Assembly (NCBI GenBank): GCA_964343575.1
Contig: CAYFJV010000002.1
Location: 69,585-133,584 of the forward strand
Origin: an uncultured Methanosarcinales archaeon
GTDB lineage: Archaea > Nanobdellota > Nanobdellia > Woesearchaeales > GW2011-AR9
DNA: 64,000 nucleotides
Direction of reading: 5' to 3'
The notes under the pieces are model-generated. The model saw only the letters and a list, made by a program, of their open reading frames with translations. It did no database searches and was not told the origin of the DNA. This document shows, one piece after another, positions 27,637-48,700 of the stretch (the stretch's first letter is position 1; every line of letters begins with the position of its first letter). The position numbers and the translations under genes are program-made.

Positions 27637-29670
27637 CTATAATCTTTGCACAAAGCCCTTTTTTGGCTCAAAGATGTCTCCTGACCTTCTTAATTTGGTA
27701 AGTACCTCATCAACATCATCTTCAGAAATATTCTTCTCTTTAGCCGCTTGCATAATCATTTCAATTGGAATGATTTTTTCTCCAACTTCTTTCTCTACTT
27801 TGCTAACTAGATCTTTAATAATGCTGATTTTGCTTCGTTGTGTTGCCGTAATCTTACTGCTAATACGGTCAATGTCAATCTTTCCAGTCTCACTGTCTTT
27901 TGCAATTTGGTTAAGGCTATAATCAAGTAGCTCAATTGCTTTTTGCGCGTCTTTTTTGGTAACTTTTTTTGCCAGGCGCAACTTTGCTGAACCTTCAGCT
28001 AAACGCACCAGAGCTTCAAGCTGCCGAGCCGAAATGGGGATGGAGCGAACTCCTCCTTCTTCAACATTGCCAAAGTTTCTCATATTTACATAATATTCTT
28101 GAATCTCTTGAATTGCGGCGTCTGTAAGTTCTGGGTTTGCAGTATTTCTCACATACATGAAATATTTTTTTAAGACGTCAGTTGGAATATCTGATTTTGC
28201 TCTTTCCGGATTTTGATGAAGTTTAAGGATAAAGGAAGCCATGATTTTGTCTTTCTCTTTGCTTGGTAAATCCTTTACTGGAAAAATAAGATCAAATCTG
28301 TTGATGAGTGCCGGTGGGAGGTTGATTTGATTTGCTATTAAGTCGTAGGGATCGAATCTTCCAAACTTTGGGTTTGCTGCTGCCAGAAGAGTGGTTTCAC
28401 AGCGGAGTGTTGCTTGAATGTTTGCTTTACTCACACTTACTGTTTGCTGTTCCATCGCCTCGTGCAAGGCAGATCTATCTTCCTTGGTCATCTTATCCAT
28501 CTCATCAATAATTGCAAAACCACGGTTAGCAAGGACTAATGTTCCTGCTTCTAAGCTCCATCCGCCAAGAAATTCATCCTTAACAACACTTGCCGTAAGA
28601 CCTGCCGCGCTTGCCCCTTTACCGCTAGTAAAACGAGATTTTGGTGCAACCTTGGTTATCCTCTTAAGCAGCTGAGATTTTCCTGCTCCGGGATCTCCTA
28701 TTAAGAGCATGTGCATATCTCCTCTTGTTTTTACACCATCAGGTCTTGCTTTTTTACAACCGCCAGCGAGTTGAAGCACAAGCGCTTCTTTGATTTTATC
28801 ATGCCCATAAATGGATGGGGCGATATTTTCGGAAAGATAACCATGTACTTGAGGATGTTTAGCAATATCTTTTATCTGTTCAAGTTCGTCTTCAGTAATT
28901 TTCATCTCGGAAGGATCATTTTCCATCGGTTCAATGAAGTTCGCTTCTAAGATAAGATCATATTTAGTTGACTTTCCTCCGCTTCGTAAGGTGATTGGTA
29001 CTTCGCTTACCCAACCGTAGAGCTTTACGCGCGCCCCTGGGCTGCTTTTTCTCTCTGGGATGGGACTCACCAAGTCTCCTTTAAGAAAAACGTTCATACG
29101 CTTTGGTTGCGCGCCGTCAAGATCATCTGGTGATTCTTCAAGTACCAATGCTTGTCCATCGATGAGCTCTTTGCTCATCTCTTTGAATTTTCCCTTTCTT
29201 CCGCAAGAGCATCTGCTTGGCTCTTTGAATTTTTGATCAAGCTGCAGTACCTTGAGAATGTTCCCGCAAGATGGGCATTCAAAAGTTGCACGTGCTACAT
29301 GGGGACGCACATCACTTTTTTGTCTAACAATTCCATCACACCATAGAAATTTTCCAAGGTGTTTGCTTCGAATTTCACTTACTCTCACTTTAAGAGATTC
29401 AGGAAAGTTTTTGAGACGTACATTGAACTTGTCTAATTTTTTGGGAAGATCAAACTCTTTGATAGCTAACTCTGCAGCTTTGAGAAGGTTCTCTGGGTCT
29501 TCAATAATTTCTTCAGTAAGCTCGGTGTTAAATTTTAGGAGAGCAGAAAAGTCGAGCACCATAGAATTTTGTCCTTTTCGCACTGCTTCAAGAAGTTGCG
29601 CGTGATAGTGCTGTTCAATAAACTCTCTAAAAAGAGTAATTTGTTTGTCTACTTCCAATGTCCACCCCAA
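27637..29670 (-). CDS. mcm: MCM replicative helicase
   Basis: N-terminal Zn finger (CPSCGN...CSCG), Walker A GDPGAGKSQLL, Walker B IDEMDKM, arginine finger and C-terminal wH domain. 677 aa with no intein. Confidence 0.95.
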   Translation of the reverse strand: MGWTLEVDKQITLFREFIEQHYHAQLLEAVRKGQNSMVLDFSALLKFNTELTEEIIEDPENLLKAAELAIKEFDLPKKLDKFNVRLKNFPESLKVRVSEIRSKHLGKFLWCDGIVRQKSDVRPHVARATFECPSCGNILKVLQLDQKFKEPSRCSCGRKGKFKEMSKELIDGQALVLEESPDDLDGAQPKRMNVFLKGDLVSPIPERKSSPGARVKLYGWVSEVPITLRSGGKSTKYDLILEANFIEPMENDPSEMKITEDELEQIKDIAKHPQVHGYLSENIAPSIYGHDKIKEALVLQLAGGCKKARPDGVKTRGDMHMLLIGDPGAGKSQLLKRITKVAPKSRFTSGKGASAAGLTASVVKDEFLGGWSLEAGTLVLANRGFAIIDEMDKMTKEDRSALHEAMEQQTVSVSKANIQATLRCETTLLAAANPKFGRFDPYDLIANQINLPPALINRFDLIFPVKDLPSKEKDKIMASFILKLHQNPERAKSDIPTDVLKKYFMYVRNTANPELTDAAIQEIQEYYVNMRNFGNVEEGGVRSIPISARQLEALVRLAEGSAKLRLAKKVTKKDAQKAIELLDYSLNQIAKDSETGKIDIDRISSKITATQRSKISIIKDLVSKVEKEVGEKIIPIEMIMQAAKEKNISEDDVDEVLTKLRRSGDIFEPKKGFVQRL

Positions 29671-30384: not shown

Positions 30385-30691
30385 GAATTAACGCCTCCGG
30401 AAGTGATTTGAGTGTTTTATTCTCTTCTTTCTCGGACTTTTAAGGAATTCTTTACAGACTATTTAAATATTCCCTTTATAAATGGTTTCTTTACCTTTTT
30501 AAAGGAGAAGGAGAGTCTTCCCTTCTCAGTAAAAAAGACCCCCTCATTTCCGATGGAAAGAGCCTAAAAACAAGTAATTTTTGTATTTTGGCTGTTTTAT
30601 TTTAGGCAGCTTTGCTTTTTTTGGCCTTTGTTTGAGATTGAAGCCTTTCTTCGAGAAAGTATTTTAAAATGGACATTTTCTTTGTTTCTCT

Positions 30692-31579
30692 ATGGTTAGT
30701 GCTACTTTTACTCATATTCTTCTCTCTTATGGGGAGATTTTTTTGAAAGGAAAAAATAAGGGTAGTTTTGAGCAGAAGTTGCTTTCTAATATTCGAAAAC
30801 AGTGCGGTTTTGGACAAGGTAGGTTGGACTTTGAGCGAGCGGGAAGCCGTTTTCTTTTACCTTATTTCGAAGAGCATGAAAAGCTGCAAAGAGTATTTGG
30901 TTTGAGTAATTATGCTCTAGCAGTTCGAGTTGAGAAAGAAATTGAGCAAATTAAACAAGTTGCTCTTAAGTTTATGTCTGAAAAGAAAGGAACTTATCGC
31001 GTGATGGCTAAGCGAGCCGATAAACGTTTTGCTTTGACTTCTCCAGAGATTAATGTTGCGGTAGGTAGTTTTTTGGGAGAGCAGTTGGGGGAATTAGAAT
31101 TTTCTTTGAAGGGTGCAGAACATGTTTTGCATGTTGAAATTAATGAAAAGGGAGCTTTTGTGTTTTTAGAAGTTGTTTCTTGCTTTGGTGGTCTTCCAGT
31201 TGGCACCGGAGGTAAAGTTGGTGCTTTACTTGATGGGAGCGAGCAGAGTTTGCTTGCTTGTTTGCTTATGATGAAACGAGGCGTGGTTCCTATACTCTTT
31301 TCTTCTGGTCTTGTTGCTGATAAGGATTTGAAGTTGCTTCGTAGCTATTCTCCAAAGAATTTGTCGGTAGTGCAGTTTGCCGATGAAAAAGAGTTGATTG
31401 CTAAGATGTCTGCGAAGAGACTTTCTGTTTTGGTTGTTGGGCAGCAGTTTTCCACTTTTGAAGAGTTTTCTTTTGAGAAGAGAGGGGACTTGCTTGTCTT
31501 TCGTCCTTTGATTGCTTTTAGTTCTGCAGAAGTTGAGGGGAAGTTTTGTAACTTTTCTCAAGCAATTGGAAAGGAATAA
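30692..31579 (+). CDS. ThiI-like THUMP-domain protein with a degenerate PP-loop (possible pseudo-enzyme or tRNA-binding partner)
   Basis: The N-terminus (ILLSYGEIFLKGKNKGSFEQKL) matches the ThiI ferredoxin-like and THUMP domains. Where ThiI has LLSGGIDS, this protein has LLDGSEQS. At 295 aa it is about 100 aa shorter than ThiI. Confidence 0.6.
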   Translation: MVSATFTHILLSYGEIFLKGKNKGSFEQKLLSNIRKQCGFGQGRLDFERAGSRFLLPYFEEHEKLQRVFGLSNYALAVRVEKEIEQIKQVALKFMSEKKGTYRVMAKRADKRFALTSPEINVAVGSFLGEQLGELEFSLKGAEHVLHVEINEKGAFVFLEVVSCFGGLPVGTGGKVGALLDGSEQSLLACLLMMKRGVVPILFSSGLVADKDLKLLRSYSPKNLSVVQFADEKELIAKMSAKRLSVLVVGQQFSTFEEFSFEKRGDLLVFRPLIAFSSAEVEGKFCNFSQAIGKE

Positions 31580-31596: not shown

Positions 31597-31797
31597 TTGT
31601 CTCTTATGGGGATTTGGGATGGGTTTTCTAGAAGTGCTGCTGTTGCAGAAGTGGAAGAGGAGCTTACCGAGGAAGAGTTTCTTGCCTTTTCTGATTCTAT
31701 CCGTAACACTGTAACTAGTTTGCGTGGTTCTTTGCACAATTATACTAAGATTTTTAGAGAGTTTGCAGTTGAGTTGGAAGCGGCTGCGCAGAATTAA
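31597..31797 (+). CDS. Hypothetical small acidic protein
   Basis: 66-aa ORF; weak support. Confidence 0.25.
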   Translation: MSLMGIWDGFSRSAAVAEVEEELTEEEFLAFSDSIRNTVTSLRGSLHNYTKIFREFAVELEAAAQN

Positions 31798-31847
31798 TTC
31801 TTGTTCTTTTTGGAAAAATATAAGAGGAAAGATCTTTCTCTTCTTGT

Positions 31848-32397
31848 TATGGTTATTAAGTTTCTGCTTGGTTTGATCCCTTTTATTAGAAGAGAAGCTG
31901 AAGAGGAAAAAATTGCTGGTCATATTGAAAATCATGCCGAGGAGTCTGATGCTTTGGCTCGTCTTCTCATGAAACGCTTACGAGAGGTTTTCGTTGCTAA
32001 TGACTCTTTTTTCCCAAATGGTGTTCAATATGAACTTGTTACCGTAAATGGGACTGCCCCTGTGGGTAAAGTTCTTCATAGGAAGAAGAGAACCTACTTT
32101 GCAAACTTGGCGCTTGCCGAGAGAATTGTGGAAGAACTGTTTAGAAGAAATCTTATCCCGGCAGAAGACCAAGATTACTTCAAAAAATATAAGAAAGACC
32201 TTCTTGACCTTCTTGCACTTAAAGACCAAGTTGACTTTTATCGGCGTGAAGTGTTTCACAGAGCCTTGGGTCGCAAAATTTCTCTTTATATTTTTGTCTT
32301 TTACAGCCAAGGGGCTATTTCCATCTATCAAGACAAAATTTTTGCTGTCAAAGAACCTTTTGGCTTACTTGGTGGTGAAGATGATGAAGAAACTTAG
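31848..32397 (+). CDS. Hypothetical protein
   Basis: The track ORF starts at a TTG at 31801; the first ATG (MVIKFLLG) is at 31848. No family recognised. Confidence 0.35.
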
Positions 32398-32420: not shown

Positions 32421-34754
32421 TTACATAACTCCTTTATTGAAGTTACCAATGGTGGTTCCTTTCTTGAGCAGAGAGATGTCTCCTGGATCTTCTCCATCGA
32501 GGATTTTTTTGTAGGCTTGCACTTCTTCTTTTGCTTTTTCTAGAAGCTTGTTGCTGCAATAATCTTCTCTGAGAAATTCAAGGTAGAAATGTTTGATGCC
32601 TTGTTCTTTGAATACTTTTATTTTGTCAAGAAGAGCAACCTTTCTTGAGTAACGCATTTCTGTGTTTTGATTTGGTGTGATTAAGAGCGGGAAAGTAATT
32701 TTCTTCTCATCAGTGAGCTTCTTTTCTTCTCTTGCTCCTTTGAAATTCATTACCACTGGGCGCCCATGAGCAAAAACCATGAAGTCTTTATCTTTGAATT
32801 GAGCTAGTTCTTTGGCGTTAAGTTCGATTGAGACGATAGGGCTTGCGTTTTCTTTTTTGACTTCTTGTAGATCAATATCATTGAAGACGTTCATGGTATA
32901 GAAAAGGTGTTTTTTGAGCTTTGGAAGCCCTTTTGTGCCTTCTGAGCGTTTTAGCTCCTTGTCCACTCTGTAGAGCCCGTGGTTTGCAATCATAATTCCA
33001 CCTGGCTTTTCCTTTTCTAGAAGAATGAGTATCTTTTTGATATCTGCATCACTCAGTGTTAAGTGAGTAAAAGCAAAGAACTCTGCTTTAGGATTAAGTT
33101 TTTTGGTAAGTTGTTTTGCCTTTGCAAACCCAGGAGAGAAGATATCATAGTAGATGGTGTTTGCCTTCTTTGCAACTATTTTGAGCAGCTCTAGGGAATT
33201 CACCCTAATGTTAAGGCTTTCCTGTGTCTTTTTTTCTCCTTTGTTTTTTGTTTTGCTCCCTTTTTCTAAAATTTCTTCTGCCCTGAGCATTCCAGGAGAA
33301 GTTCTCGCTACTTTTGGTAGGAAAACTGAGTTTAGTTCCTCTTTGATTTGAGTTATGCTTGAGGAAGGTAGGAAAAGATTCTTTGGAAGTTTTCCTTCTA
33401 GCGTGATTGTAAAGAAGTTGTTTTTGTTTAGTTTCTCTTCAATAGTTTCTTTGTTAAGTGCGCTTGTCTTTGCCTGTTGTAAAAGATCTTTGCTGGCGAA
33501 AATATGTTCTTTTCCTTTCCAGTTTGTGTTGAGCTCTAGGGCTTTTCCAATCTCCGCTTGGCTAATGCTGAGGGCGAGCGGATATCTTTTATTCTTCCCA
33601 GCCAGGGGTTTTCCTTTGCTTTGTGAAGTAAGATAAACTCTTGCCCCTTCTCTGAATGAAGGGTTTGGAATTTGTACCTCTTGGCCTTTTATAGCATGTT
33701 TGATTATTTTTCCATTCTTGTCCAAGAGTTTTTGTACAAACTCTCCTTTCATTTCTCCTTTTCTTTTATCCCAAAAACCAATGCCATCATGGATATAAAG
33801 CTCGTGAAGCAACTTTATCTTTTTGTTATGCACTTCTCCTAAGAAAATTCCCCTATGGGTGGGGAGTGTTGTGCTGAGTACTTCTTTATACTCATTTTTG
33901 AGGAAGAAGCCAGTAGTAAAGTCTCGATTGAAACTCATTCTGATGCGATCAAAATCTTCTTGGGTAAATTTTTTCCAGTTTCCAGAGTAGTACCTATCAA
34001 TTGCTTCTCGATAACATTTGGTGACTACCCCAACATACTCTGGAGATTTCATTCTCCCTTCAATCTTGATGGTGTGAACCCCACTTTCGATAATTTTTGG
34101 AATTTGATTGAGCAGCGCAAGATCTTTTGGACTGAGTAAGAAGCCTTCTTTGTTGTACTCTTTACGACAACTAGAAGCGCAAAGTCCTCGATTCCCTGAA
34201 CGTTTTCCGATGAGAGATGAGATGAGGCATTGTCCTGAATAAGAAATGCAAAGATGTCCATGACAGAAAATTTCTATAGGAAATTGTGATCGCTCTGAGA
34301 TGTATCTTAGCTCGTTAAAGTCAAGTTCTCTAGCAACTACTGCCAAGTCTGCGTATTGTTGCCAATTTTTGAGGCCCGCGTAGTTCATAATGCTTGCCTG
34401 CGTTGAGATGTGTACTTTGAGATCCGGATAGCGTTCTTTAATGAATGGAAGAAGATAGATGTCTTGTACAATTACTGCATCAACACCAGCTTCGTAGGCT
34501 TTGTCAAGCGCTTTGAACCATAGATTTAATTCATTGTTTTTTATGAGCGTGTTTAATGTGAGGTTAATCTCTACTCCATGAAAGTGGGCAAGCTGTATTG
34601 CAGCTGGGAGCGTTTCAAAAGTTAAATTTCCTTTGTTTTTTCTTCTGGCGTTGAAGTTCTTCACCCCAAGATAAACTACATCAGCACCATTATTGATAGC
34701 TGCTTGCAGAGCTTCTAGTGAACCTGCCGGAGAGAGGAGTTTGAGTTTTTTCAT
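32421..34754 (-). CDS. Peptidase U32 family protein (RlhA/TrhP-type; possible RNA 5-hydroxylation factor) with a long C-terminal extension
   Basis: N-terminal U32 TIM-barrel core with the signature EIFCHGHLCISYSGQC...GNRGLCASSCR. At 777 aa it is roughly twice the length of the minimal U32. Confidence 0.8.
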   Translation of the reverse strand: MKKLKLLSPAGSLEALQAAINNGADVVYLGVKNFNARRKNKGNLTFETLPAAIQLAHFHGVEINLTLNTLIKNNELNLWFKALDKAYEAGVDAVIVQDIYLLPFIKERYPDLKVHISTQASIMNYAGLKNWQQYADLAVVARELDFNELRYISERSQFPIEIFCHGHLCISYSGQCLISSLIGKRSGNRGLCASSCRKEYNKEGFLLSPKDLALLNQIPKIIESGVHTIKIEGRMKSPEYVGVVTKCYREAIDRYYSGNWKKFTQEDFDRIRMSFNRDFTTGFFLKNEYKEVLSTTLPTHRGIFLGEVHNKKIKLLHELYIHDGIGFWDKRKGEMKGEFVQKLLDKNGKIIKHAIKGQEVQIPNPSFREGARVYLTSQSKGKPLAGKNKRYPLALSISQAEIGKALELNTNWKGKEHIFASKDLLQQAKTSALNKETIEEKLNKNNFFTITLEGKLPKNLFLPSSSITQIKEELNSVFLPKVARTSPGMLRAEEILEKGSKTKNKGEKKTQESLNIRVNSLELLKIVAKKANTIYYDIFSPGFAKAKQLTKKLNPKAEFFAFTHLTLSDADIKKILILLEKEKPGGIMIANHGLYRVDKELKRSEGTKGLPKLKKHLFYTMNVFNDIDLQEVKKENASPIVSIELNAKELAQFKDKDFMVFAHGRPVVMNFKGAREEKKLTDEKKITFPLLITPNQNTEMRYSRKVALLDKIKVFKEQGIKHFYLEFLREDYCSNKLLEKAKEEVQAYKKILDGEDPGDISLLKKGTTIGNFNKGVM

Positions 34755-34788: not shown

Positions 34789-35823
34789 TTAATTACCCAC
34801 ATATTTTGAATAAAGGGCTTGCGCTTCTTTTTCTTTCTTTGCTTTTATGAGTGCTCTTCCATCTTTGAAGATGAGAAGGTTGAAGGAGTTGTCTTTTGCT
34901 TTTATGGCGAGTGCAGTGTTGTCATAGATAGTTGTGATGTTTTCTTCTTTGTTTAGTTTTTCTTCTAGCTCTTTGAGATCGATAGCTTTATTTCCTAGGA
35001 TTTGGAAGTTTCCAGAGGAACAGAAGCGTTTAGTCCTTTCCTCCTCTCTTTCTGGGTTGAGGTGGGTGAAGTTTCCCTGACAAGTAGGACAGTTTTCTCT
35101 TCTTTTTGCTTTGAGTTTTCTCAGATCATTGTTCCAGATGTTGAAAGTGATAAGTTCTCCTTGATCTACTGTTTTGCCTAGAATTATTTTGAGGGCCAGA
35201 GTTACTTGCATGCTTGCTATGATATGTGTTGTGCTGTTCAAAACTCCAGCAGAAGCGCAGGTCTCCCCTCGCGCATTGTTTGGCAGTGCGCAGTTAAGGC
35301 AAGAGATGTTCTCTTTACCTTCTTCTTGGGTTATTGCCATAAGCATACCCTCTTTTTGGATAGCTCCAGCATAGATCCAAGGAATCTTTTCTTTTGCACA
35401 AAAGTCGTTGATGAGCAGTTTTGTTTGAAAGTTGTCTGTGCAGTCGAGTAGAAGAGAATACTCTTTTAGTTTGAGAGAAAGGATGTTTTTTGCATTAAGA
35501 TGCATGTTTTCAGTTTCTATCTTTACTTGAGAGTTAATCTGTAACAATTTTTCCTTGCAGACTTCTGCTTTGTTCTTTCCAATGTCTTTTTCTGTAAAAA
35601 GCGCTTGTCTTTGTAGATTAGAAAGCTCGATTGTGTCTCGATCAATAAGCAAGAGTTCTTGCACACCTGCTCGAACTAGAAGTTCTGCTGCCACAGTTCC
35701 AAGGGCTCCGCAGCCAATTATTGCTATTCTTGCAGCACAGATTTTTTCTTGCCCTTCTTCTTGGATGTCTGGGATGAGCATTTGTCTTGAGTACAGCTCC
35801 TTTTGTTTGTTTGTGAGTTTCAT
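34789..35823 (-). CDS. E1-like MoeB/ThiF/UbaA adenylyltransferase for ubiquitin-like sulfur carriers, with a ~90-aa C-terminal extension
   Basis: Rossmann motif IIGCGALGTVAAELLVRAGV and two CxxC pairs (CLNC...CPTC). An uncharacterised C-terminal domain follows. Confidence 0.85.
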   Translation of the reverse strand: MKLTNKQKELYSRQMLIPDIQEEGQEKICAARIAIIGCGALGTVAAELLVRAGVQELLLIDRDTIELSNLQRQALFTEKDIGKNKAEVCKEKLLQINSQVKIETENMHLNAKNILSLKLKEYSLLLDCTDNFQTKLLINDFCAKEKIPWIYAGAIQKEGMLMAITQEEGKENISCLNCALPNNARGETCASAGVLNSTTHIIASMQVTLALKIILGKTVDQGELITFNIWNNDLRKLKAKRRENCPTCQGNFTHLNPEREEERTKRFCSSGNFQILGNKAIDLKELEEKLNKEENITTIYDNTALAIKAKDNSFNLLIFKDGRALIKAKKEKEAQALYSKYVGN

Positions 35824-35826: not shown

Positions 35827-36816
35827 TTATTGCGTTTCTTCTGCTTTTTGTAGCACTGCTTTGAGCTTACAAGCATTACAAACTTTTCCGTTACTTGGCT
35901 CGCCGCAGCTTTGGCAGGATTGGATGCCTTTTTTTGAACTTGTGTTTCTTGCACTGGCCATTTCTCTTTCTTTGAGTAAAGGGAGCATGTCTAGGAAAGA
36001 ATTAATGATCCCTGTTTTGGTCCCAGGGAATTTTTCTTCAAAAGTATTGAGCAAATCACGTACTTCTGCGCGGTAGCTTTGGGTTACATTTGGACACTCA
36101 GTGTATTCTACTTTGAATCCTTTGAGAAAAGTGTAGAGCCTGGTTTCTTTCTCTGAGCAAAAATAAAGTGGCTTTACTCTACGAACAAAGTCTTGGTGCG
36201 CCTCAACCCCACTTATAGGGCCGAGTTTTGCTGCAAGCTTGGTATTTGCCTTGAACAGGTTCATAAGCACAGCTTGGGACTCATCATCAAGGTTGTGTCC
36301 AGTTACTAGTTTTGTTGCCTTTAGTTCCTTTGCATATTTGTTGAGAAGGTACCTTCGCCACACACCACAGATGTTACAGGGCTTTTTTTTTGTCTCTTTG
36401 TTGATGATAGGGAATGCTTGGTCAAGTGTTTTCCCAAAGTCTTCTTCAAAAGAAGCAATTTTGAGTGGGACATCATGTTGTTTACAGAAAGTTTTGAGAT
36501 CGTCAAGTGTTTTTTCTCTGTAGTCTGCAATCCCTTCATTGATAATGAGCGCATGCAAATTGTCTCTTGGAAAGTTGTTTTTTTCCATGTACTTTTTGAC
36601 TAGATAGAGAACGGTTAGAGAATCTTTCCCTCCAGAAGCTGCAACACAAACCTTATCGTTTCTCCCGATAAGCTGAAAGCGATTAATTGTTTTGATAACC
36701 TTCTCTTCAAAATAAGAAATGAAATGTTTTTTACAAAGTTTCCCGTGCTGTAATTCGATTACTGCCTTTTCCTCGCATTTGATGCAAGAGTTTGTTTTGT
36801 TTCTTGTTTCTTGCAT
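35827..36816 (-). CDS. ncsA: tRNA 2-thiouridine synthetase, NcsA/TtuA/Ncs6 family (PP-loop ATPase with Zn fingers)
   Basis: N-terminal CxxC...C zinc finger, PP-loop AASGGKDS, central CNICG and C-terminal CQSCG...CNAC motifs. Confidence 0.85.
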   Translation of the reverse strand: MQETRNKTNSCIKCEEKAVIELQHGKLCKKHFISYFEEKVIKTINRFQLIGRNDKVCVAASGGKDSLTVLYLVKKYMEKNNFPRDNLHALIINEGIADYREKTLDDLKTFCKQHDVPLKIASFEEDFGKTLDQAFPIINKETKKKPCNICGVWRRYLLNKYAKELKATKLVTGHNLDDESQAVLMNLFKANTKLAAKLGPISGVEAHQDFVRRVKPLYFCSEKETRLYTFLKGFKVEYTECPNVTQSYRAEVRDLLNTFEEKFPGTKTGIINSFLDMLPLLKEREMASARNTSSKKGIQSCQSCGEPSNGKVCNACKLKAVLQKAEETQ

Positions 36817-36818: not shown

Positions 36819-37046
36819 CTAGCCCCCAGAGATGACGCTCAGGAGCAAAATGTTATCATTGTCTTGGAGAAGATCGTCAGTAGTAAGCACTTCATTGCCT
36901 CTAGTGACAAGAACGGTTTGCGCATTGACTTGAATCTCTTGAAGAAGTTCTTTGACAGTGCTGCCTTCAAAGCCTTCTAGCTTGAATGTTTGGCCCGTCT
37001 TTTCATTATGTACTTCAATGCTTTTACTTGTGCTGTTTGTGTTCAT
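36819..37046 (-). CDS. SAMP/TtuB/Urm1-type ubiquitin-like small sulfur carrier protein ending in Gly-Gly
   Basis: 75 aa with a beta-grasp-like pattern and the C-terminus ...LLSVISGG followed by the stop. It lies 3 nt upstream of ncsA in the same orientation. Confidence 0.7.
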   Translation of the reverse strand: MNTNSTSKSIEVHNEKTGQTFKLEGFEGSTVKELLQEIQVNAQTVLVTRGNEVLTTDDLLQDNDNILLLSVISGG

Positions 37047-37789: not shown

Positions 37790-38539
37790 TTATTTATTCT
37801 TCTTTTTAAGCTGCCAAAGTTGCCACCCCGAAATTAAAGCAAAGACAAGGCACAAATATTGCCCCATAGTAAGCCCTTGGCTAAGAATGAGGTATTCTTT
37901 GAAGAATTCTAAAAAGAAACGAATAGTAGAGAAAAGAAAGATGAAGAGCCAAAAGATGAAGCTTTCTGGAAGTTTGTTTTCCTTTTTTTGATGAAGTGTA
38001 ATGAGGGCAATAAAGATGAAGGTGTTTTGCAGCGCTTCGTAGAGCTGCACGGGGTGGCGTTTACCTTCGTATCCTTCAAAGAGAACTCCAAAAGAAGAGT
38101 TTGTTGCTCTTCCTACAATTTCTTGGTTGAGGAAATTACCGAATCTCACAAAAATAGCCCCAAGGGCTACTACAATCATACTTAAATCGGCTAGCTTCCA
38201 AAAGTTAAGTTGCTTTTTCTTCGCGTAAAGGTAGGCTCCAAGACTTCCTCCAACAATTGCTCCATGGGATGAGAGACCTCCTTCCCAGAAGAAAAGAATT
38301 TGTATGGGGTTGTAAAGAAAATGTGTTGGACTGTAGAAAATTGCGTGAAAGATTCTTGCTCCGATGAAAAGACTGATAACTGTTACAAGATAGTACTCCA
38401 TAGCAATCTCTTCTTTGATGCCTTCTTGTTTTGCTAGATATTTGAACAGGAAAAAAGAGCAGAGTAGAGCTAGCATAATCATAACGCCGTACCAGCGAAT
38501 GCTTAGAGTTCCGATTTGAAGCGCGATAGGATCTATCAT
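37790..38539 (-). CDS. lgt: Prolipoprotein diacylglyceryl transferase (Lgt) homolog, a bacterial-type lipoprotein biogenesis enzyme
   Basis: Starting from MIDPIALQIGTLSIRWYGVMIMLALLCSFF, the protein follows the Lgt N-terminal consensus (IDPVAFxIGPLxIHWYG) with about 7 TM helices. It carries the Lgt signature region GGLSSHGAIVGGSLGAY and a C-terminal basic stretch. The track ORF extends 38 codons upstream into a GC-rich intergenic region and is trimmed here. Confidence 0.6.
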   Translation of the reverse strand: MIDPIALQIGTLSIRWYGVMIMLALLCSFFLFKYLAKQEGIKEEIAMEYYLVTVISLFIGARIFHAIFYSPTHFLYNPIQILFFWEGGLSSHGAIVGGSLGAYLYAKKKQLNFWKLADLSMIVVALGAIFVRFGNFLNQEIVGRATNSSFGVLFEGYEGKRHPVQLYEALQNTFIFIALITLHQKKENKLPESFIFWLFIFLFSTIRFFLEFFKEYLILSQGLTMGQYLCLVFALISGWQLWQLKKKNK

Positions 38540-38758
38540 TTTTTGTTTTAGCTTTGGAGAAAATCTCGCTACGCTCGTGTTGGGCCGGGCAAAACATCTG
38601 CTTCTTTTTTTGATTGTGCTACGTCCCCGGATGGGGCCACCCCCGTAACGCACTCGCTTGTTTCTTCTATGATGTTTTGCGAATTGACCCCAACAACATT
38701 TCCTCCAAATCCAGTAGTTAAGCTAAGTATTTTAAAGTTGCTCGGCTTTCTCTTCTTT

Positions 38759-39334
38759 ATGCCTAGACAGAAGAAATTGAGAGCAGGTTTTGAAGGAGTA
38801 TTTCTTCGTTTTACTCCATCGGAAGCAGAGCTCTCCTTGGTAAAAGAACTTGGTTTTTCTAGCTCTAGCGTTCTTGTTGCGGGCAAAGATTTTGTGTTTT
38901 TAGAAGAGAAACAGAAGAAAAAAGTTTTGAGTGAAGCCCGAAAGGCAAAGAAAAAAGGAAAATTTCTTGTTGCTCGAGTTTTTGATGAAGATCATTTGCG
39001 TTTTGTGGTAGAGCATAGCCCAGTTGATATGGTTTTAGGAATGGAAAAGATCAACCCCAAAGATAGCATGCATTATCCAAGATCAGGAGTTGATCAAGTG
39101 ATCGCAAAGATTGCTGCTAAGAAAGGAAAAACTCTTGCTTTTTCTTTTCAAGACATTTTGGCTGCTAGGCCAGGAAAGGAGCGAGCGCAGCTTTTACATC
39201 GTATGCGTTTTACTTTGAAGTTTTGTAAGAAGTATGGCGTTAAAGTTTTCTTTGGAAATTTTGCGCTTAGGAGAATGGAACTTCGAGCCCAAAAAGATCT
39301 TATGGCTTTTTTTAGATTGTTGCAGAAGAAATAG
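38759..39334 (+). CDS. rnp3: RNase P protein subunit Rpp30 (Rnp3)
   Basis: GVDQVIAKIAAKKGKTLAFSFQDIL...RAQLLHRMRFTLKFCKKYGVKVFFGNFA matches the Rpp30 TIM-barrel C-terminal half. A TATA-like TTTTAAAG lies at 38731-38738. Start assigned to MPRQKK. Confidence 0.55.
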   Translation: MPRQKKLRAGFEGVFLRFTPSEAELSLVKELGFSSSSVLVAGKDFVFLEEKQKKKVLSEARKAKKKGKFLVARVFDEDHLRFVVEHSPVDMVLGMEKINPKDSMHYPRSGVDQVIAKIAAKKGKTLAFSFQDILAARPGKERAQLLHRMRFTLKFCKKYGVKVFFGNFALRRMELRAQKDLMAFFRLLQKK

Positions 39335-39379: not shown

Positions 39380-41809
39380 GTGATGTTAGCGTCAGCTCAA
39401 AAAAGAGGACATTGTAGGGATAGCAAGCGTGGGCAAGTTACCCTGTTCATAATTCTAGGAATGGTTATTCTTATCTCCGTTGGTTTCATGCTAGCGCTTA
39501 CTGCCATGATTCAGAAAGGACAATTGCAAGTTGCTGAAGAAGATGTAGTTTCCAATTTATTTCAAACCGAGAGTTTGCGTTTGTTTATAGATGATTGTTT
39601 GTATGATGCCCTTGAGGAGGGTTTAGTTCAAATTGGAGAGCAAGGGCGTTTGTGGAAAGAGCAGGATGGTGGCACTGTTCCTTTTGTTGCAGGAGAGACC
39701 GGAACCTTTCATTTTGGAAAACAGGTTTATTATGCAATCAGTTATGATAACAACAGTAATCATAGCGAGGCTTACCCTTGTTCCAATTCCACAGATCTTT
39801 CTCCTGATTATTGTCGCTACAGTTTTCCTGAGGAAGGAAAATTTGGTGAGAAGGAGCATTTGAGTGCAAGTGCAATTGAAGGAGATTTGCTCCGATACAT
39901 TACTCAGGAAGCAGCTCTTTGTATGGAAGAAGTGCTTCAAAGTAATTATTCTTTGTTCGTCCCGGTTGTTGCTGAAGAAATTGATCTTTCTTTAGATATT
40001 GCTACAAATGGCATTGCTGTAGAAGCAAGCTATCCTTTACATCTTGAGCAAGGGGGAGAAGAATACACCCAACTTACCGAGTTTGATTTTTTTTACTCTA
40101 GCTCTTTGAGCTCTTTTTTACTTCAAGCAGTAACACGCCCTATTAATGAAGAGCAAAGTGATCCAACTTATCTTTTTTCAGAAGCTGATTTGCAAAGTTC
40201 GGAGCCCTATCAACTTTTAGATCCCACTTTTACAAAAACAGAGGCGAGCAGTGGGGATACTATCATTCAATATAACTTGAACCCGGGAGTGATTCTTGAG
40301 AACCAAGATTATTTCTTTCAATTTGCTTTAGAAAATCGCCCTCCTGCACTTGACTACATTGAGCGTAATGCTTGTTTAAGTTATGATTATTTGGTTTTAG
40401 AGGGAGAGCAAGGAGATATGGGAAAATTACTTTTAGATGCATCAGCTAGTGACCCTGAGGAGGATAGCGTTACTTTTTCTTTGCTTGACGATCATTTGCC
40501 AGTGCCACTTAGTTCGGTAGATTCTGATTCTTGGAGTGCAGACTTACAAGGTGCGGCTCCAGGTTATTATAACTTCACTCTTTTAGCGGCAGATGAACAT
40601 GGTAGGACTGATTTGCAAAATGTTCGCGTCCTTCTTGATCGAGAAATCACCGCTGAATTTTCGGTCGCTTCCCCTTATTGTACTTTTGCAGGAGACCATA
40701 GTTGTTTACTCTCTACCGAAGATCCTTTTTTTGTAACACTTACTAACCCAGGAGAATCGTTAGCAGCAGACGTTGATGAAGTGCTTGAGCTTAGTTACGA
40801 TGGTTTTAATGGAGAGAGCTTTGTTTCAGGAGCTTTGTATCCTTCCTTACTTGGTGCAGAGAGTTGTATTGGTCTTCCAATGGAAACTGAGACTAGCCCA
40901 GCATCTTGTAACATTAGTGCTTACGACCCATTCATTGAAAGTTGGAAAGATTCTTTGTTGGGCCCGAGCAGTACGCACCCCTACTTAAGCCAAACGACGC
41001 CAGATGGCGAACTTAGTGTGGCCTTTTTTACAGGTTATTGCGGCGCCTGGGAGTATGAAAATAAGGAGTTCTTACATTTTGAAGTTGCAGAGTGTATCCC
41101 TCATGAAAATCTTGAGAATCCCTTCGCTTACCCTTACCACCACCAAACTTTTGATCCGATCAGCGGAGAATATCTTGGTCTTGATGAGGAAATTAGTCCT
41201 TTCTTGGCGGCCCACAGTTGTTGTAATATGAATGGAACTTACAAGGCAGCAGGCTCAAGTTGTTATGAAAGTGCTCCTGGTTGTTATGGAGGTATTGTTG
41301 GTTGGACTTCTAGCGCTCCCGGTCTTGTCTTGGAGCAGGAAAGCGATACTTGTAGTGGGCTTCGTGGGAATGTTTGTGGGACTGGAAGTTCTAAAATAAG
41401 CGAATTGTATCAAGGAAACCTTGTTTGTGGAAGCAGTTTTGATGTTTCTTGCTCTTTAGATCAAATCCCAGATGTCTGTGAAGGAAGAGATGCTTGGGGT
41501 TATGTTGATGAGAACTTTGATGGTATTAACGATGCTTGGTGTCACGGGCAAATGGGTTGTAGTGCTCTTTGCTCACTCGGCGATGGCGGGTCAGTAGTTT
41601 ATTCAGGAGGAGGAGTTGCTCCAAGTGGGCCAGAGGGCATTAACCAACAGGCAGTTTTGGGACAGGCAAGTGATGATGCTTTTGCGCCTTTCGATCCTTT
41701 TTTCTCTTTTAGTTGTGGATGTAGTTCTGCTACAGAAGGAAGTGTTTGTGATGCTAACTTTGATGGAGAATTCTTAGGGCAGTGTGTTTCTAGTGTTTGT
41801 GTTGAGTAG
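39380..41809 (+). CDS. Large (809 aa) acidic, Cys-rich extracellular protein with a class III (prepilin-like) signal peptide
   Basis: The N-terminus is ...SKRG|QVTLFIILGMVILISVGFMLALTAM, a basic tract then G|Q then a 22-aa hydrophobic stretch. The mature part is D/E-rich with many paired Cys residues. Confidence 0.6.
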   Translation: MMLASAQKRGHCRDSKRGQVTLFIILGMVILISVGFMLALTAMIQKGQLQVAEEDVVSNLFQTESLRLFIDDCLYDALEEGLVQIGEQGRLWKEQDGGTVPFVAGETGTFHFGKQVYYAISYDNNSNHSEAYPCSNSTDLSPDYCRYSFPEEGKFGEKEHLSASAIEGDLLRYITQEAALCMEEVLQSNYSLFVPVVAEEIDLSLDIATNGIAVEASYPLHLEQGGEEYTQLTEFDFFYSSSLSSFLLQAVTRPINEEQSDPTYLFSEADLQSSEPYQLLDPTFTKTEASSGDTIIQYNLNPGVILENQDYFFQFALENRPPALDYIERNACLSYDYLVLEGEQGDMGKLLLDASASDPEEDSVTFSLLDDHLPVPLSSVDSDSWSADLQGAAPGYYNFTLLAADEHGRTDLQNVRVLLDREITAEFSVASPYCTFAGDHSCLLSTEDPFFVTLTNPGESLAADVDEVLELSYDGFNGESFVSGALYPSLLGAESCIGLPMETETSPASCNISAYDPFIESWKDSLLGPSSTHPYLSQTTPDGELSVAFFTGYCGAWEYENKEFLHFEVAECIPHENLENPFAYPYHHQTFDPISGEYLGLDEEISPFLAAHSCCNMNGTYKAAGSSCYESAPGCYGGIVGWTSSAPGLVLEQESDTCSGLRGNVCGTGSSKISELYQGNLVCGSSFDVSCSLDQIPDVCEGRDAWGYVDENFDGINDAWCHGQMGCSALCSLGDGGSVVYSGGGVAPSGPEGINQQAVLGQASDDAFAPFDPFFSFSCGCSSATEGSVCDANFDGEFLGQCVSSVCVE

Positions 41810-45700: not shown

Positions 45701-48700
45701 ATCTCTTAGTCTATCTTACTGATTTGAGCGAGCCAGTGAGTTGTAGTTTTACATTGGAAGAAATTTTGCCTCCTGCTGCAGAGCAAGTTATTGGGTTTGA
45801 ACGTGACGAGGACAAAGAATACACTTTTGTAGGCCTTGGGGCTACTCTTGCCGAGTTGAGTGTTTCTTGTACTGATGATCATGGAAACTCTTTTGTGCAT
45901 GAAGAGACCCTTAGTTTTGATCTAGAACAAGATATTAGTATTGTTTATCCTCCTTTGGGTGGCTCTGTTTCTGAGACCACAATTATTTTTGAGATTGAGA
46001 CCGCAGTGTCTGCAAGTTGTGACTTGTATTACGATAATGATGGCGACCTTATCTTTGATTATCTAAGTAACTTTAACAGTATCGATATTGATAATAAGGT
46101 TCACGAAACTAACCCGATTCCTGGCTTCTTCGAAGGAGAATATGTTGGTAACTTACAGGTGATTTGTCGAGAATCTTTGGATCAGAGCCAAGTGTTAGAA
46201 GATTATTTTGATTTTGTCGTAGATTTTACCGGGCCAGAGACACAGATTATTTTGACTGAAGGGACCAGAGAAGAAACCCCAATTGCTTATGGTTGGGAAG
46301 AATACTTTATCTCTGAAGTGCAGGTGGACTTTAGTTGTGAGGCAGATGGATTTGATTGTGACCAAAGTTTTTATTGTCTTGGAGAAGGTTGTGAATTTGC
46401 AAGTGCCCCGGGTTATGTAGAGTACACTGGAAGCGGCAGTTTGTTTGTAAATGAAACAACAGAAATTTGTTATTACTCTACAGATCTTGGCGGTTCTACT
46501 GTTTATCCTACTTGTGGAACCATCATCGTAGAGGGCTTTGGCATCAATTTAGTTCAACCGGACCCTTATTTCTATCAAGGAGAAGTTTATGGAGTAAGTG
46601 CAGCCGATAGCTTTGATTGGGAAGTTATGAGCAAGATTGATACTCAAGGCTGCGTTTTTGATTTCACTTCAGAATTTGATTATCATGGGGTCCCTCTAAT
46701 CCGAACTTTCTCGGAAAGTCTTAGTGGAGAAAATTACTACCTTTATTCTCCTTTCCCTGGAGATGGGGCGAGCGCTTACGACGCAATTGGCGGGCTTAAA
46801 GTCCTTTATGTGAAATGTGAAGATTACCAAGGAGAGATTGGTCCTGCACAGAAAATGAACCTTGAGTTCGATCCTTCTGCTCCAAGTATTAGTGATGCTT
46901 ACGCTGAGCCAGATTTTATCACCGAAGGAGTTGTTACTCATCTTTATGTGACCACCGATGATCCTACGCTTTGTAGGTACAGTGATAACTCAGATGGGGA
47001 CGGAAGTACTGAATTTGCAACTATGCCATTCAGTTTCCCTGGTTACGATGAAGGAGAATTGCATCTTGCTCATCAAGACGATTTTATTTTCAGTTTTGTT
47101 GGTGCAACAAGAGATTACAGCTTAAATGTACAATGTATGAACGGGGCAGGAGACCTTTCTGAAGTTGAAACCATTGATTTTAGTGTAGATTATACTGTTG
47201 CAGGAAACATTATGAGTGTTGCTCCGAGTGGTTTTATCTCTGGAGAAAACGTTACTTTACTTGTTGAGACTAACAAAAACGGCGTTTGTTCTTACGAAGA
47301 AAATGGCAGTTCAGTTGATTTTGAAGTAACTGGTGGCACAAGTCACAGCCATTTGATTGGGTCTCTTGAAGAAGGAGATTATCAATACCTTGTCACTTGC
47401 CATATCGCAGAAAATGTACGCACTGCCGAGATTATCTTTACTGTAGATCAAACTGCGCCAACTGTGACCATGGTAGAGGATGGTTCTTACTCTTGTAGTT
47501 TGGAGCAAGTGAGCATTTATGTTTACACAGACGAAGAAAACATTAGCACTTATTACTATCAACTCTATCAAGGAGAATCAGATCTTGGAGAATCTTCTTT
47601 GAGTACTTACTTTACTACTACTAATGATACAGCCCCAGATGATGAAGAAGCAGTGCTTATTGGAGAAGGAACCTTGTTAGGGGACAATGGTACTGTGATT
47701 ACTGGACTTAGTTTAGAAGAAAATGAGAGTTACTTTGTGAAGGTTGCAGCAAGCGATGTTGCTGGAAACACTGGCGGATACACTTCAAGTGATGGTTTTA
47801 TTGCAAGTGGTTCTGACCTTACTGTTTGTGCTGCTGATGGTGATGCGCCAAACGTTCGCGTACAAACCAACAGTAGTAGTTGTACTGAAGTCACCGCCGA
47901 AATTATTTGTGAGGATGAACTTGCTTGTAGTAGCATTAGTTATGGACAGAGCACAAGTTCCGAGACCTGCTCTGCCGATTCAAGTTATTATGGACAAAAA
48001 CTTTCCTTCTCAAGCTCTGGGTGGGTTTGTTACTCTGCAAGCGATCCAAGCGATAACCAAGAGAATGGGAGTGCTCAAATAACCTTTAGTGATAATGATG
48101 GAGATGGCATCTCTGATAGTTGTGATCTTTGTAGTGGTACTCTGTCTGGACAAGATGTTGATGCAGAAGGTTGTGGTCTAGGGCAGGTTCCAGATGATGA
48201 GCGAACAAATGATGAAGATAACGATGGTTTGCCAGATCATTGGGAAAGAGTCTATCACAGAGAAGGTGTTTGTCCTTTGTTTGCCGAAGCAATAGACTCG
48301 GACAGTAATGGTATTACTGATACTGATGAAGATTATGATGGGGACGGTTACACTAACTATGAAGAGTACATTGCTGGTTTAGACCCTTGTGTTGCTGATG
48401 CTCCGAGCACCTTTATTGATGACAATGATCTTGACAGCGAACTTCTGGGCCTTCCTGGAAGTGGAGAAGGAAAGGAAGGGGCCGATGTTGTAGCTATTAT
48501 CTTCTTTGTCATTGGCGCACTGTTCATGCTTGGTGGTGCGGGTTATCTTTATTATTATTATAATTACACTCCAGAAGGGAAGGTTCTTTTGAAGCAAGGG
48601 GGGAAAGGGAGTCTGAGAGGAGTCGGTTCTGGCGGCGCTCTTGGAAGTAGCGTTGGTGGCGGCCTATATCGTCAAGGAATTGGTTCTCGATCAGCAGGTG

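Follow-up and report, generated by a model that had tools for sequence, protein, structure and literature searches.

A probable pseudo-ThiI with a degenerate PP-loop, conserved in Woesearchaeota and Nanoarchaeota and encoded near a ubiquitin-like-protein-dependent tRNA thiolation cassette

Introduction

[quoted passage not shown] In the ThiI dimer the NFLD/THUMP part of one subunit holds the tRNA and the PPase domain of the other acts on it; the dimer interface of the T. maritima enzyme (TmThiI) is formed mainly by the PPase domain (PMC4041423). A truncated ThiI-like architecture is already known from PH1313 of Pyrococcus horikoshii, of which a crystal structure (PDB 1VBK) has been available since 2005. 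[quoted passage not shown] Presentation of tRNA by a non-catalytic protein is represented by Tan1/THUMPD1, an NFLD+THUMP protein that presents tRNA to the acetyltransferase Kre33/NAT10 (PMC9957541). Gene links between E1/ubiquitin-like proteins and ThiI in archaea were noted earlier (PMC2948915), archaeal NcsA reportedly functions as a single enzyme, and a Ctu1/Ctu2 complex is mentioned in PMC10067955. In this study, we describe a ThiI-like gene in a window of 64 kb, by which the whole stretch of DNA analysed is meant, and its relatives in other archaea.

Results

The RNA-binding domains are kept and the catalytic elements are lost

The ThiI-like (pseudo-ThiI) gene is an ORF with an ATG start on the forward strand (30692..31579, including the stop codon) and encodes 295 aa. 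A TATA-like box (tattttaaaa, 30660..30669, forward strand) can be read in the sequence 23-32 nt upstream of the ATG, in the intergenic region that is shared divergently with the TBP gene. It is a putative archaeal promoter, which might give rise to a leaderless or short-leader mRNA of the ThiI-like gene. The protein features described below are likewise encoded on the forward strand. The NFLD (aa 8-74, 30713..30913; PF22025, ThiI_fer, E 1.9e-12) includes the RNA-binding loop GEIFLKGKN, and the THUMP domain (aa 83-159, 30938..31168; PF02926, E 3.2e-12) is the predicted binding module for the 3'-CCA end and acceptor stem. With the RNA- and ATP-contact residues of TmThiI taken from PMC4041423, K19, K21, K23, R49 and R53 of the NFLD align to the RNA contacts K17, K19, R21, R42 and R46, and N121, G125, F137 and K140 of the THUMP domain align to N122, G126, V138 and R141 of the CCA groove. 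Both domains are thus intact, as a sequence-only reading of this DNA had suggested. They are followed by a GGLPVG linker (aa 166-171, 31187..31204) that is common to true ThiI and occurs in the same form in 4KR6 and 2C5S.

The remainder of the protein (aa 172-295, 31205..31576) is a vestigial Rossmann (PPase-like) domain, delimited by alignment with true ThiI and by the profile match to 1VBK; it probably serves for dimerisation or docking. The ThiI catalytic domain PF02568 found no match in the 295-aa protein in a Pfam search. TIGR00342 (ThiI) scored 115.1 bits, where the cutoff is 264.5, and matched only at model positions 1-197 of 373, and the HMMER match to 4KR6 (TmThiI; 105 bits) extends over aa 10-199. 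In this alignment LLDGSEQSLLA (aa 179-189, nt 31226-31258) takes the place of LLSGGIDSPVA, so that the degenerate PP-loop DGSEQS (aa 181-186, 31232..31249; aligned to 4KR6 and 2C5S) occupies the position of SGGxDS. The earlier claim that LLDGSEQS stands for LLSGGIDS, with the first Ser, the second Gly and the Asp all changed, is confirmed: S is replaced by D, the second G by S, I by E and D by Q, and only the first G and the last S are kept. The ATP-contact residues S182/G184/I185/D186 of TmThiI accordingly correspond to D181/S183/E184/Q185.

The losses extend beyond the PP-loop. The DI-loop that contacts the ATP phosphates (GESLGQVSSQT in true ThiI, G286-Q295 of TmThiI) is deleted down to VGQQF, and the R264/M267 region is deleted as well. 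The chain ends about 20 residues past an RPLIA motif, ahead of the catalytic Cys region, and neither the Cys344 loop nor the CXXC+C [4Fe-4S] ligand region is present. MKRG and RPL motifs of ThiI are kept, and the Lys of the RPLxGxDK motif is not conserved in the ThiI-like family. C164, the only well-conserved Cys of the family, corresponds to the dispensable C165 of TmThiI. Compared with true ThiI (371-413 aa) the protein is 76-118 aa shorter, in agreement with the estimate of about 100 aa made before. Judged from these sequence features the ThiI-like protein is almost certainly catalytically dead and would not adenylate or thiolate U8 by itself, which upholds its designation as a probable pseudo-enzyme.

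An AF2 model of the protein reached a pLDDT of 94.6 and superimposes on 4KR7 and 1VBK with TM scores of 0.81-0.82 (Foldseek gave 0.82/0.79 for 1VBK); a compact fold is therefore predicted with high confidence. ThiI and PH1313 were matched by fold at E 1e-25. The THUMP methyltransferases Trm11, Trm14/TrmN and RlmKL were matched in the THUMP part only (TM 0.34-0.44, E 1e-8 to 1e-9), and 2DIR, a THUMP domain of the Tan1/THUMPD1 type, was matched weakly (E 2e-3). A methyltransferase domain was not detected with Pfam. An identity as THUMP methyltransferase, which had been named as a possible objection, was therefore rejected: the closest relatives in sequence and fold are ThiI and PH1313.

The ThiI-like proteins form a conserved family

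Among 140 distinct orthologues from Woesearchaeota/Nanoarchaeota (DPANN), all of them intact and 260-300 aa long, none possesses SGGxDS. The degenerate loop is instead kept across the family as a shared acidic replacement, L-x-E-[ND]-E-x-S, with the consensus E/D(0.94)-N/D-(gap)-E-A-S(0.87) over the 140 members; S183 of the window protein is an extra residue in this loop that occurs in 4% of them. E15, L18, K19, G20 and N22 of the RNA-binding loop and R108 and S117 of the THUMP domain are invariant, and G166, G167, P169 and G171 of the linker are invariant or conserved at 0.99. In the C-terminal domain R196, G197, P272 and L273 are conserved at about 1.0, and D212, S220 and G250 are also conserved. 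The dN/dS ratio is 0.11-0.22 over the whole gene and 0.13-0.34 in the vestigial C-terminal domain (best pair: dS 0.50, omega 0.11). Both halves of the ThiI-like protein are under constraint. The pseudo-ThiI family is large, under strong purifying selection and apparently near-universal in a major DPANN lineage. Many of its members carry the label 'tRNA 4-thiouridine(8) synthase ThiI', which for proteins without a PP-loop amounts to systematic mis-annotation.

The conserved loop and the low dN/dS bear on the fate of the gene. Decay, which had been considered before, is rejected on account of these ratios and of the large intact family. The loss of the signature motif and of about 100 aa would be expected of a pseudogene in decay, or of a normal thiI gene distorted by assembly or sequencing, and we give this explanation next to no credence. 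An identical protein is found in two independent ENA assemblies and in a 485-kb NCBI contig, and no leftover coding sequence for the ThiI C-terminus was found downstream in any frame, so that a frameshifted or misread thiI was rejected; the 140 intact orthologues and the predicted compact fold argue against it as well.

The family profile matched PH1313 (1VBK) best, with 199 bits and from end to end: its positions 4-267 of 275 align with residues 2-300 of the 307-residue chain. PH1313 shares 53-57% identity with the 380-aa TtuI of Thermococcus and only about 25% with the window protein. In neighbour-joining trees the PH1313 group joined the Thermococcales TtuI in 200/200 bootstraps, whereas the DPANN family and the Thermococcales short forms were united in 0/200, as were all short forms together. 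Orthology with PH1313 was thus ruled out. Since PH1313 groups with its own TtuI and never with the DPANN family, the two short families arose independently: the Thermococcales forms derive, as the trees show, from their own ThiI, and the DPANN family has an independent, convergent origin. A similar acidic loop also arose independently in the Thermococcales and in Thermoplasmata-like short forms.

No canonical ThiI was found in the 64-kb window or in its examined flanks. A real ThiI is encoded in a few Woesearchaeota MAGs (P0248, in an archaeal context). True ThiI is represented by about a dozen close relatives versus more than 140 ThiI-like members, its nearest outside relatives being from Patescibacteria, and it looks rare in the clade. 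ThiI and the ThiI-like protein were not found in one genome among the traceable assemblies (GCA_018675265.1 versus GCA_018656565.1, GCA_002762785.1, GCA_016188115.1 and GCA_964405725.1).

The neighbouring thiolation cassette and its gene order

A set of tRNA thiolation genes lies on the reverse strand of the window. It comprises a SAMP/ThiS-like ubiquitin-fold sulfur carrier of 75 aa with the C-terminus ...VISGG (36819..37046; weak ThiS/SAMP2 matches, Pfam ThiS in the called gene), a TtuA/NcsA-family PP-loop [Fe-S] tRNA thiolase of 329 aa (35827..36816; PF01171), a ThiF/MoeB/UbaA-type E1 adenylyltransferase of 344 aa (34789..35823; PF00899, E 1.4e-70, with NCBIfam matches to MoeB/ThiF and UbaA) and a U32-family protein of 777 aa with a TrhP/UbiU-like N-terminal domain (32421..34754; PF01136, E 1.5e-70; NCBIfam TrhP 208.8 bits, below cutoff). 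The U32 gene is the last of the operon and occurs, apart from the window, in the P0003 lineage only (L003/L009). The thiolase has an intact SGGKDS, two Zn fingers and the CxxC...C ligands. An assignment to TtuA or NcsA was abandoned, as the NCBIfam scores tie (205.5 bits for TtuA and 204.9 for NcsA, neither of which reaches the cutoff) and the PDB matches are close (PH0300 TtuA 176 bits, NcsA 6SCY 164 bits). If the thiolase is NcsA, which acts on U34, a ruler for the CCA end would grip the tRNA at the wrong end, which counts against a pairing. On its other side the cassette has a conserved neighbour as well, an RNase P p30-like gene on the forward strand (38669..39334; PF01876, E 3.8e-6), which in L033, L034 and L058 likewise comes after the cassette and in L035 stands directly after the ThiI-like gene.

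Related loci were located with a 13-sequence family alignment. In about 30 of the 38 archaeal family loci examined the ThiI-like gene lies beside the SAMP and TtuA/NcsA-type thiolase cassette, in part with E1. Adjacency to the thiolase outlasts the loss of E1 and SAMP (L010, L011, L014, L017, L023) as well as inversion of the cassette. The order ThiI-like gene, SAMP, thiolase is found on one strand in L033 and L058, and ThiI-like gene and thiolase are co-oriented in L034; in L033 and L034 there is a 4-nt overlap with the following gene at the ThiI-like stop. Co-orientation with the cassette was thus observed in three divergent lineages, with 4-nt overlaps in two. The cassette is not beside the ThiI-like gene in L018, L035 and L038, and in L038 the gene that follows and overlaps the ThiI-like gene codes for a UPF0004 + radical-SAM methylthiotransferase. 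In the window itself the ThiI-like gene and the cassette converge, with two small ORFs and the U32 gene between them; therefore they are not co-transcribed there. By itself, such adjacency could be a matter of inherited gene order: synteny across the clade extends over the whole block from PolD/Cdc6/MCM/TBP to Rpp30, and the thiolase is no more constant a neighbour than TBP and MCM.

A Rosetta-stone fusion of NFLD-THUMP with TtuA/NcsA was searched for and rejected, as the longer members P0108, P0105, P0026 and P0069 have ThiI_fer/THUMP only; PF22023, which appeared in this search, is the Pus10 THUMP model. A NAT10/Kre33/TmcA acetyltransferase gene was not noticed beside the locus in the context tables. 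Outside the DPANN family, no thiolase adjoins the PH1313 orthologue of P. furiosus, where a SAMP2 gene lies 3 kb off and is not adjacent, and none adjoins the Thermoplasmata-like short form P0237. In P. furiosus the PH1313 orthologue PF1487 co-exists with an active TtuI (PF1288).

Discussion

The reading that we favour, and in which we place about even confidence, is that the ThiI-like protein derives from ThiI, has lost catalysis, has kept tRNA binding under selection across Woesearchaeota/Nanoarchaeota and may serve as a tRNA-presenting subunit, possibly together with the adjacent thiolase. NFLD and THUMP would keep their hold on the acceptor end of the tRNA, while ATP site and Cys region are gone, and what is left of the Rossmann domain, the part of ThiI that makes its dimer interface, would become a docking surface of a non-catalytic subunit. 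Tan1/THUMPD1 serving NAT10 is a precedent for such a role. The likeliest partner would be the neighbouring [Fe-S] PP-loop thiolase of TtuA/NcsA type, which SAMP thiocarboxylate and E1 would feed. As one subunit of the ThiI dimer holds the tRNA and the other acts, a heteromer of this kind would amount to a thiouridine synthase that is 'split' over two proteins, or to a pair resembling Ctu1/Ctu2. The thiolase as partner is plausible from gene order, and we propose it tentatively. A role as targeting subunit for the NcsA/TtuA system was already part of the sequence-only reading; the conserved adjacency and the operon-like order in divergent lineages lend it real but indirect support as a candidate function. 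It is tempting to speculate further that the function of ThiI was divided, with the dead ThiI-like CCA-end ruler docking on the [4Fe-4S] SAMP-thiocarboxylate thiolase and retargeting it to position 8 (s4U8) or to another uridine near the acceptor or T arm, although we regard this version as unlikely. If true, it would represent a new two-subunit thiouridine synthase and give a function to the unexplained PH1313-type proteins, and the repeated independent truncation would point to a general 'adaptor' fate of ThiI.

The ThiI-like protein might also bind tRNA without catalysis and owe its link to the cassette to inherited gene order only, acting alone as an acceptor-end chaperone or shield, or with another enzyme: a canonical ThiI, which it would join as heterodimer partner or regulate, a NAT10-type acetyltransferase or a MiaB-type methylthiotransferase. 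This possibility carries some weight, short of being probable: the block is syntenic with TBP and MCM as equally constant neighbours, the genes converge in the window, and the Pyrococcus short form shares its genome with an active TtuI and has no thiolase neighbour. However, passive synteny is hard to accept in view of the three lineages that are co-oriented with SAMP and/or thiolase and of the overlaps at the ThiI-like stop. As to the partner, the few Woesearchaeota MAGs with real ThiI would allow a ThiI heterodimer, but its rarity and the failure to find both proteins in one traceable assembly weaken this idea; the overlapping methylthiotransferase gene of L038 suggests a MiaB-type enzyme in that lineage, and the Tan1 precedent, which would suit NAT10, is set against a fold that comes from ThiI and not from Tan1.

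Dead nucleotide-binding folds typically have acidic residues where phosphate was once bound, and the acidic loop of the family fits this pattern. Nevertheless, the loop (E-[ND]-E-x-S) together with KRG and RPL could potentially form a non-canonical nucleotide or metal site for another reaction on the acceptor or position-8 region. The conservation of the replacement loop and of the C-terminal residues listed above, a constraint nearly as strong in the C-terminal as in the N-terminal part, and the independent appearance of similar loops in the other short forms are consistent with an enzyme. We consider it improbable, since all residues known to contact ATP or to carry sulfur are lost or deleted and the domain is reduced to about 120 aa. 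KRG and RPL are conserved in real ThiI too and may therefore be structural, and for PH1313 no activity has come to light in about 20 years (PMC9957541).

In summary, the ThiI-like architecture is no Pyrococcus curiosity, as a large selected DPANN family arose separately from that of Thermococcales and is linked in the genome to a tRNA thiolation cassette that depends on a ubiquitin-like protein. This yields a testable hypothesis for all proteins of the class, namely that they may be non-catalytic tRNA-presenting subunits of TtuA/NcsA-type thiolases.

Among known systems, ThiI/TtuI (TIGR00342; 4KR6, 2C5S) is clearly homologous over the N-terminal 170 aa and shares the GGLPVG linker, but it has SGGxDS, the DI-loop, the RPLxGxDK Lys and Cys344 or CXXC+C, none of which is found in the window protein. 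PH1313 is alike in its NFLD, THUMP and shortened PPase-type domain, its length of about 300 aa and the missing catalytic cysteine region, and its loop is, like that of the family, acidic and one residue shorter than a PP-loop (ILHDELSALA versus LLENEASLLA); it differs in its low identity. Tan1/THUMPD1, unlike the window protein, does not descend from ThiI and carries no remnant of a Rossmann domain. Ctu2/Ncs2 is a degenerate member of the PP-loop family that partners Ctu1/Ncs6, the U34 thiolase of eukaryotes. It is not known to have a THUMP or NFLD domain, in which it differs from the window protein. By analogy only, it resembles the arrangement proposed here, in which a dead PP-loop ATPase relative would be paired with a thiolase of the TtuA/NcsA family that uses a ubiquitin-like thiocarboxylate.

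Loss of catalytic features and retention of tRNA contacts

The ThiI-like gene (30692..31579, + strand) is an ORF encoding 295 aa, with a TATA-like box, read from the sequence and possibly a promoter element, 23-32 nt 5' of the ATG. Pfam matches the ThiI ferredoxin-like domain (aa 8-74) and the THUMP domain (aa 83-159), both of which a sequence-only reading had considered intact, and nothing in the C-terminal 135 residues. The NCBIfam ThiI model TIGR00342 scores 115 bits (cutoff 264.5) and covers only model positions 1-197 of 373. Real ThiI proteins are 76-118 aa longer, in agreement with the earlier estimate of about 100 aa. In HMMER alignments 'LLDGSEQSLLA' lies opposite 'LLSGGIDSPVA' of 4KR6 (T. 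maritima ThiI) and 2C5S; as previously read, SGGxDS has replacements at its first Ser, its second Gly and its Asp. Alignment with real ThiI proteins also showed an internal deletion of ~20-30 residues, shrinkage of the segment 'GESLGQVSSQT' to 'VGQQF' and loss of the Asp-Lys pair that follows the RPL motif. The chain stops ~20 residues past 'RPLIA', ahead of the cysteine-bearing loop.

Functional residues were mapped using the HMMER alignment to 4KR6 and the contacts in the T. maritima (Tm) ThiI-RNA-ATP structure (PMC4041423). The Tm ATP contacts Ser182, Gly184, Ile185 and Asp186 correspond to D181, S183, E184 and Q185. Deletions remove both the DI-loop (Gly286-Gln295) and the Arg264/Met267 region, and the protein lacks the loop Lys338-Asn351, which carries the catalytic Cys344. 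[quoted passage not shown] The sole exception is Tm Arg10, which is S12 in the window protein and Arg in at least 90% of its DPANN family. C164, the only well-conserved cysteine of the family, aligns with a residue that ThiI can do without, Tm Cys165. From these correspondences, the protein is predicted to be incapable of adenylation or thiolation and would bind the 3'-CCA/acceptor stem as ThiI does. With the catalytic motifs gone and the tRNA-binding domains kept, its earlier interpretation as a ThiI-like pseudo-enzyme is upheld.

An AlphaFold2 model built from the family alignment is compact and three-domained (pLDDT 94.6, pTM 0.90). It matches ThiI 4KR7 (E 2.8e-25, TM 0.81) and PH1313, a Pyrococcus horikoshii ThiI-like protein (PDB 1VBK; E 4.9e-25, TM 0.82/0.79). 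A THUMP methyltransferase identity was rejected, as those fold matches were far weaker (E ~1e-9, TM 0.34-0.44).

Conservation and selection

Database searches yielded over 100 proteins, 260-300 aa long and 35-47% identical, the named ones from Woesearchaeota/Nanoarchaeota MAGs. Together with genes taken from fetched loci, they gave 140 distinct family members, none of which has SGGxDS. The replacement loop is conserved in these orthologues, with the consensus L-[VLI]-E/D(0.94)-[N/D]-E-A-S(0.87)-[LI]-L-A-G-L-L-M-M-K-R-G-C and one residue fewer than the PP-loop; the window protein, a minority variant, has one additional residue. In the databases, many PP-loop-less proteins (P0004, P0006, P0007 and P0121-P0128) are called 'tRNA 4-thiouridine(8) synthase ThiI', 'adenylyl- and sulfurtransferase ThiI' or 'thiamine biosynthesis protein ThiI', which is systematic over-annotation.

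For six orthologue pairs (Nei-Gojobori), dN/dS was 0.11-0.22 for the whole gene, 0.07-0.24 for the NFLD and THUMP half and 0.13-0.34 for the vestigial domain. In the pair with least saturation (L018/L021, dS 0.50), the values were 0.113 overall, 0.095 for the N-terminal and 0.129 for the C-terminal half. Both halves are under purifying selection; therefore the suggestion that the gene might be decaying is rejected, and PP-loop loss is a family trait. The truncation could also have reflected a pseudogene or an artefact. This is refuted by the identical protein encoded in two independent ENA assemblies and a 485-kb NCBI contig, by the family-wide lack of SGGxDS and by the selection data. With four true ThiI catalytic domains as tblastn queries, no remnant of the missing part was found downstream or elsewhere in the window.

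Gene neighbourhood and thiolation cassette

The window represents a core region for information processing in a DPANN archaeon, with genes for PolD large and small subunits, Cdc6, MCM, TBP, TFE-alpha, TyrRS/TrpRS, RNase Z, RPA and RNase P p30. The ThiI-like gene is divergent from the TBP gene and convergent with a minus-strand operon. The operon encodes a SAMP/ThiS-like carrier with a terminal GG (36819-37046), a thiolase of the TtuA/NcsA family that has two zinc fingers, CxxC...C ligands and an intact SGGKDS (35827-36816), a ThiF/UbaA-type E1 (34789-35823) and, last, a 777-aa U32/TrhP-like protein (32421-34754). The thiolase scores 205.5 bits for TtuA and 204.9 for NcsA (NCBIfam), both under cutoff, so that neither name can be assigned. 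The N-terminal part of the U32 protein resembles TrhP (tRNA U34 hydroxylase; 208.8 bits) and UbiU (190.6 bits), both again under cutoff; its gene belongs to the operon only in the window lineage and its closest relative (L003/L009). Its position here hints at U34 as the target of the cassette, for hydroxylation and thiolation.

Between the ThiI-like and U32 genes lie two plus-strand ORFs, 31597-31797 (66 aa) and 31801-32397 (198 aa, or 182 aa from the gene caller). Neither has a Pfam or NCBIfam match, and tblastn matched only the identical contigs L001/L002 and no related locus. An Lgt (prolipoprotein diacylglyceryl transferase) homologue (37790-38653, - strand; PF01790, E 1.7e-63) is kept in some related loci (L006, L026). 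A long series of large ORFs follows (39380-60908), one of 2141 aa (42715-49140); those at 39380-41809, 49768-50934, 50944-52539, 55028-55813, 55839-56828, 57220-58002 and 59544-60908 have no Pfam match at 1e-5. Giant proteins occupy the equivalent place in related loci, one in L003/L009 with CarboxypepD_reg repeats. The MCM of this closest genome (L003/L004/L009; L003 5700-9110) has 1136 aa including a LAGLIDADG-endonuclease intein; that of the window (27637-29670, 677 aa) is without intein.

The ThiI-like gene adjoins a TtuA/NcsA-type thiolase in ~30 of 38 archaeal family loci, and the arrangement is likewise present in a marine clade. Since TBP and MCM are equally constant neighbours, this could be inherited gene order. 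More telling than simple adjacency is its persistence where E1 and SAMP are lost (L010, L011, L014, L017, L023) and after cassette inversion. On a single strand, the order is ThiI-like, SAMP, thiolase, Rpp30 in L033 and L058 and ThiI-like, thiolase, Rpp30 in L034, and in L033 and L034 there is a 4-nt overlap between the ThiI-like gene and the one that follows. Rpp30 directly follows in L035, where the cassette is absent, and an unrelated gene adjoins in L018. In L038, a Nanoarchaeota MAG locus without the cassette, the ThiI-like gene (6299-7099, +) overlaps by 41 nt a different tRNA sulfur-insertion enzyme, a UPF0004 and radical-SAM (MiaB/MtaB-type) methylthiotransferase (7059-8132, +). A 2010 paper (PMC2948915) had already pointed to links of archaeal E1/Ubl genes with ThiI genes.

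Shortened thiolases without the N-terminal zinc finger lie co-oriented and downstream of the ThiI-like gene in L034 (7771-8643, 290 aa; directly next, with the 4-nt overlap) and L051 (2604-3419, 271 aa; ~860 nt away, with an opposite-strand ORF in between). Nine loci (L009, L013, L017, L018, L020, L021, L024, L028, L031) come from MAGs labelled 'uncultured Methanosarcinales archaeon'; their MCM-TBP-ThiI-like-thiolase cassette synteny is of Woesearchaeota type, with TBP/MCM 70-92% identical, and the labels are probably wrong.

Other short forms and canonical ThiI

The family profile matches PH1313 best (199 bits; profile 4-267 of 275, chain 2-300 of 307), above 4KR6 (181 bits) and 2C5S (176 bits). 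PH1313 was termed a 'ThiI-like protein' with a PP-loop domain reduced through C-terminal deletion and several conserved residues missing; its activity was never confirmed, and its crystal form is a dimer (PMC9957541). The truncated architecture is therefore known. Orthology of the DPANN family to PH1313 was ruled out: PH1313 is 53-57% identical over its full length to 380-aa Thermococcus TtuI (4-thiouridine synthetase) proteins with SGGIDS and a CXXC motif, and in bootstrapped NJ trees short and full-length Thermococcales forms grouped in 200/200 replicates, compared with 0/200 for all short forms together and 0/200 for the DPANN family with Thermococcales short forms. Thus, the truncated, acid-looped design has evolved at least twice. 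A third set comprises 293-aa proteins labelled Thermoplasmata or Euryarchaeota (loop 'LVEDESDLVAA').

The Thermococcales short forms show a graded loop series (LLSGGIDSPVAA, LLSGPNSALAA, LLSGKNSALAM, ILEDKKSALAI, ILHDELSALAI). Among P0121-P0134 the steps run from SGGIDS to SGPNS and SGKNS to EDKKS and HDELS, with an identical one-residue deletion at every step. The series looks like a snapshot of gradual ATP-site loss following duplication. The P. furiosus member (P0127, AAL81611.1) has zero cysteines and occurs alongside the biochemically active [4Fe-4S] TtuI PF1288. No thiolase neighbours the short forms of P. furiosus or the Thermoplasmata-like lineage.

One Woesearchaeota MAG (GCA_018675265.1) encodes a canonical 371-aa ThiI with SGGIDS (P0248; L091 6001-7116) among clearly archaeal neighbours (Cbf5, S3Ae, L31e, RIO kinase). 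Its close archaeal relatives are few, the named ones being Woesearchaeota and one Kariarchaeaceae; the next named matches are Patescibacteria ThiI (45-49% identity). These similarities suggest that this ThiI type has moved between domains, among episymbiont lineages.

Proposed function and comparison with known systems

The ThiI-like protein is very probably a non-catalytic tRNA-docking protein under selection. We regard the adjacent SAMP-dependent thiolase as its partner only tentatively. It could instead be a stand-alone binder or serve another enzyme, including canonical ThiI, which some Woesearchaeota MAGs do encode and whose nearest outside relatives are in Patescibacteria. Less probably, it could still be an enzyme, the conserved acidic loop being the centre of a new chemistry.

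In ThiI, one subunit holds the tRNA through its NFLD/THUMP and the partner subunit carries out the modification with its PPase domain; the dimer interface is mainly PPase (PMC4041423). Given this cross-subunit action, the PPase interface and the PH1313 dimer, a dead ThiI with a conserved Rossmann remnant would be well suited to presenting tRNA to a catalytic domain provided in trans. Non-catalytic adaptors made of NFLD and THUMP have an established precedent in Tan1/THUMPD1, which works with NAT10. In Ctu2/Ctu1, a dead PP-loop relative is paired with a TtuA/NcsA-type thiolase; for the ThiI-like protein and thiolase this analogy is looser.

The finding is real, but not categorically new, because PH1313-type proteins were already known. 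The DPANN version evolved independently, is very widespread and has a conserved link to a thiolation cassette that depends on a ubiquitin-like protein, and this independent origin and link make the function of PH1313-type proteins directly testable.
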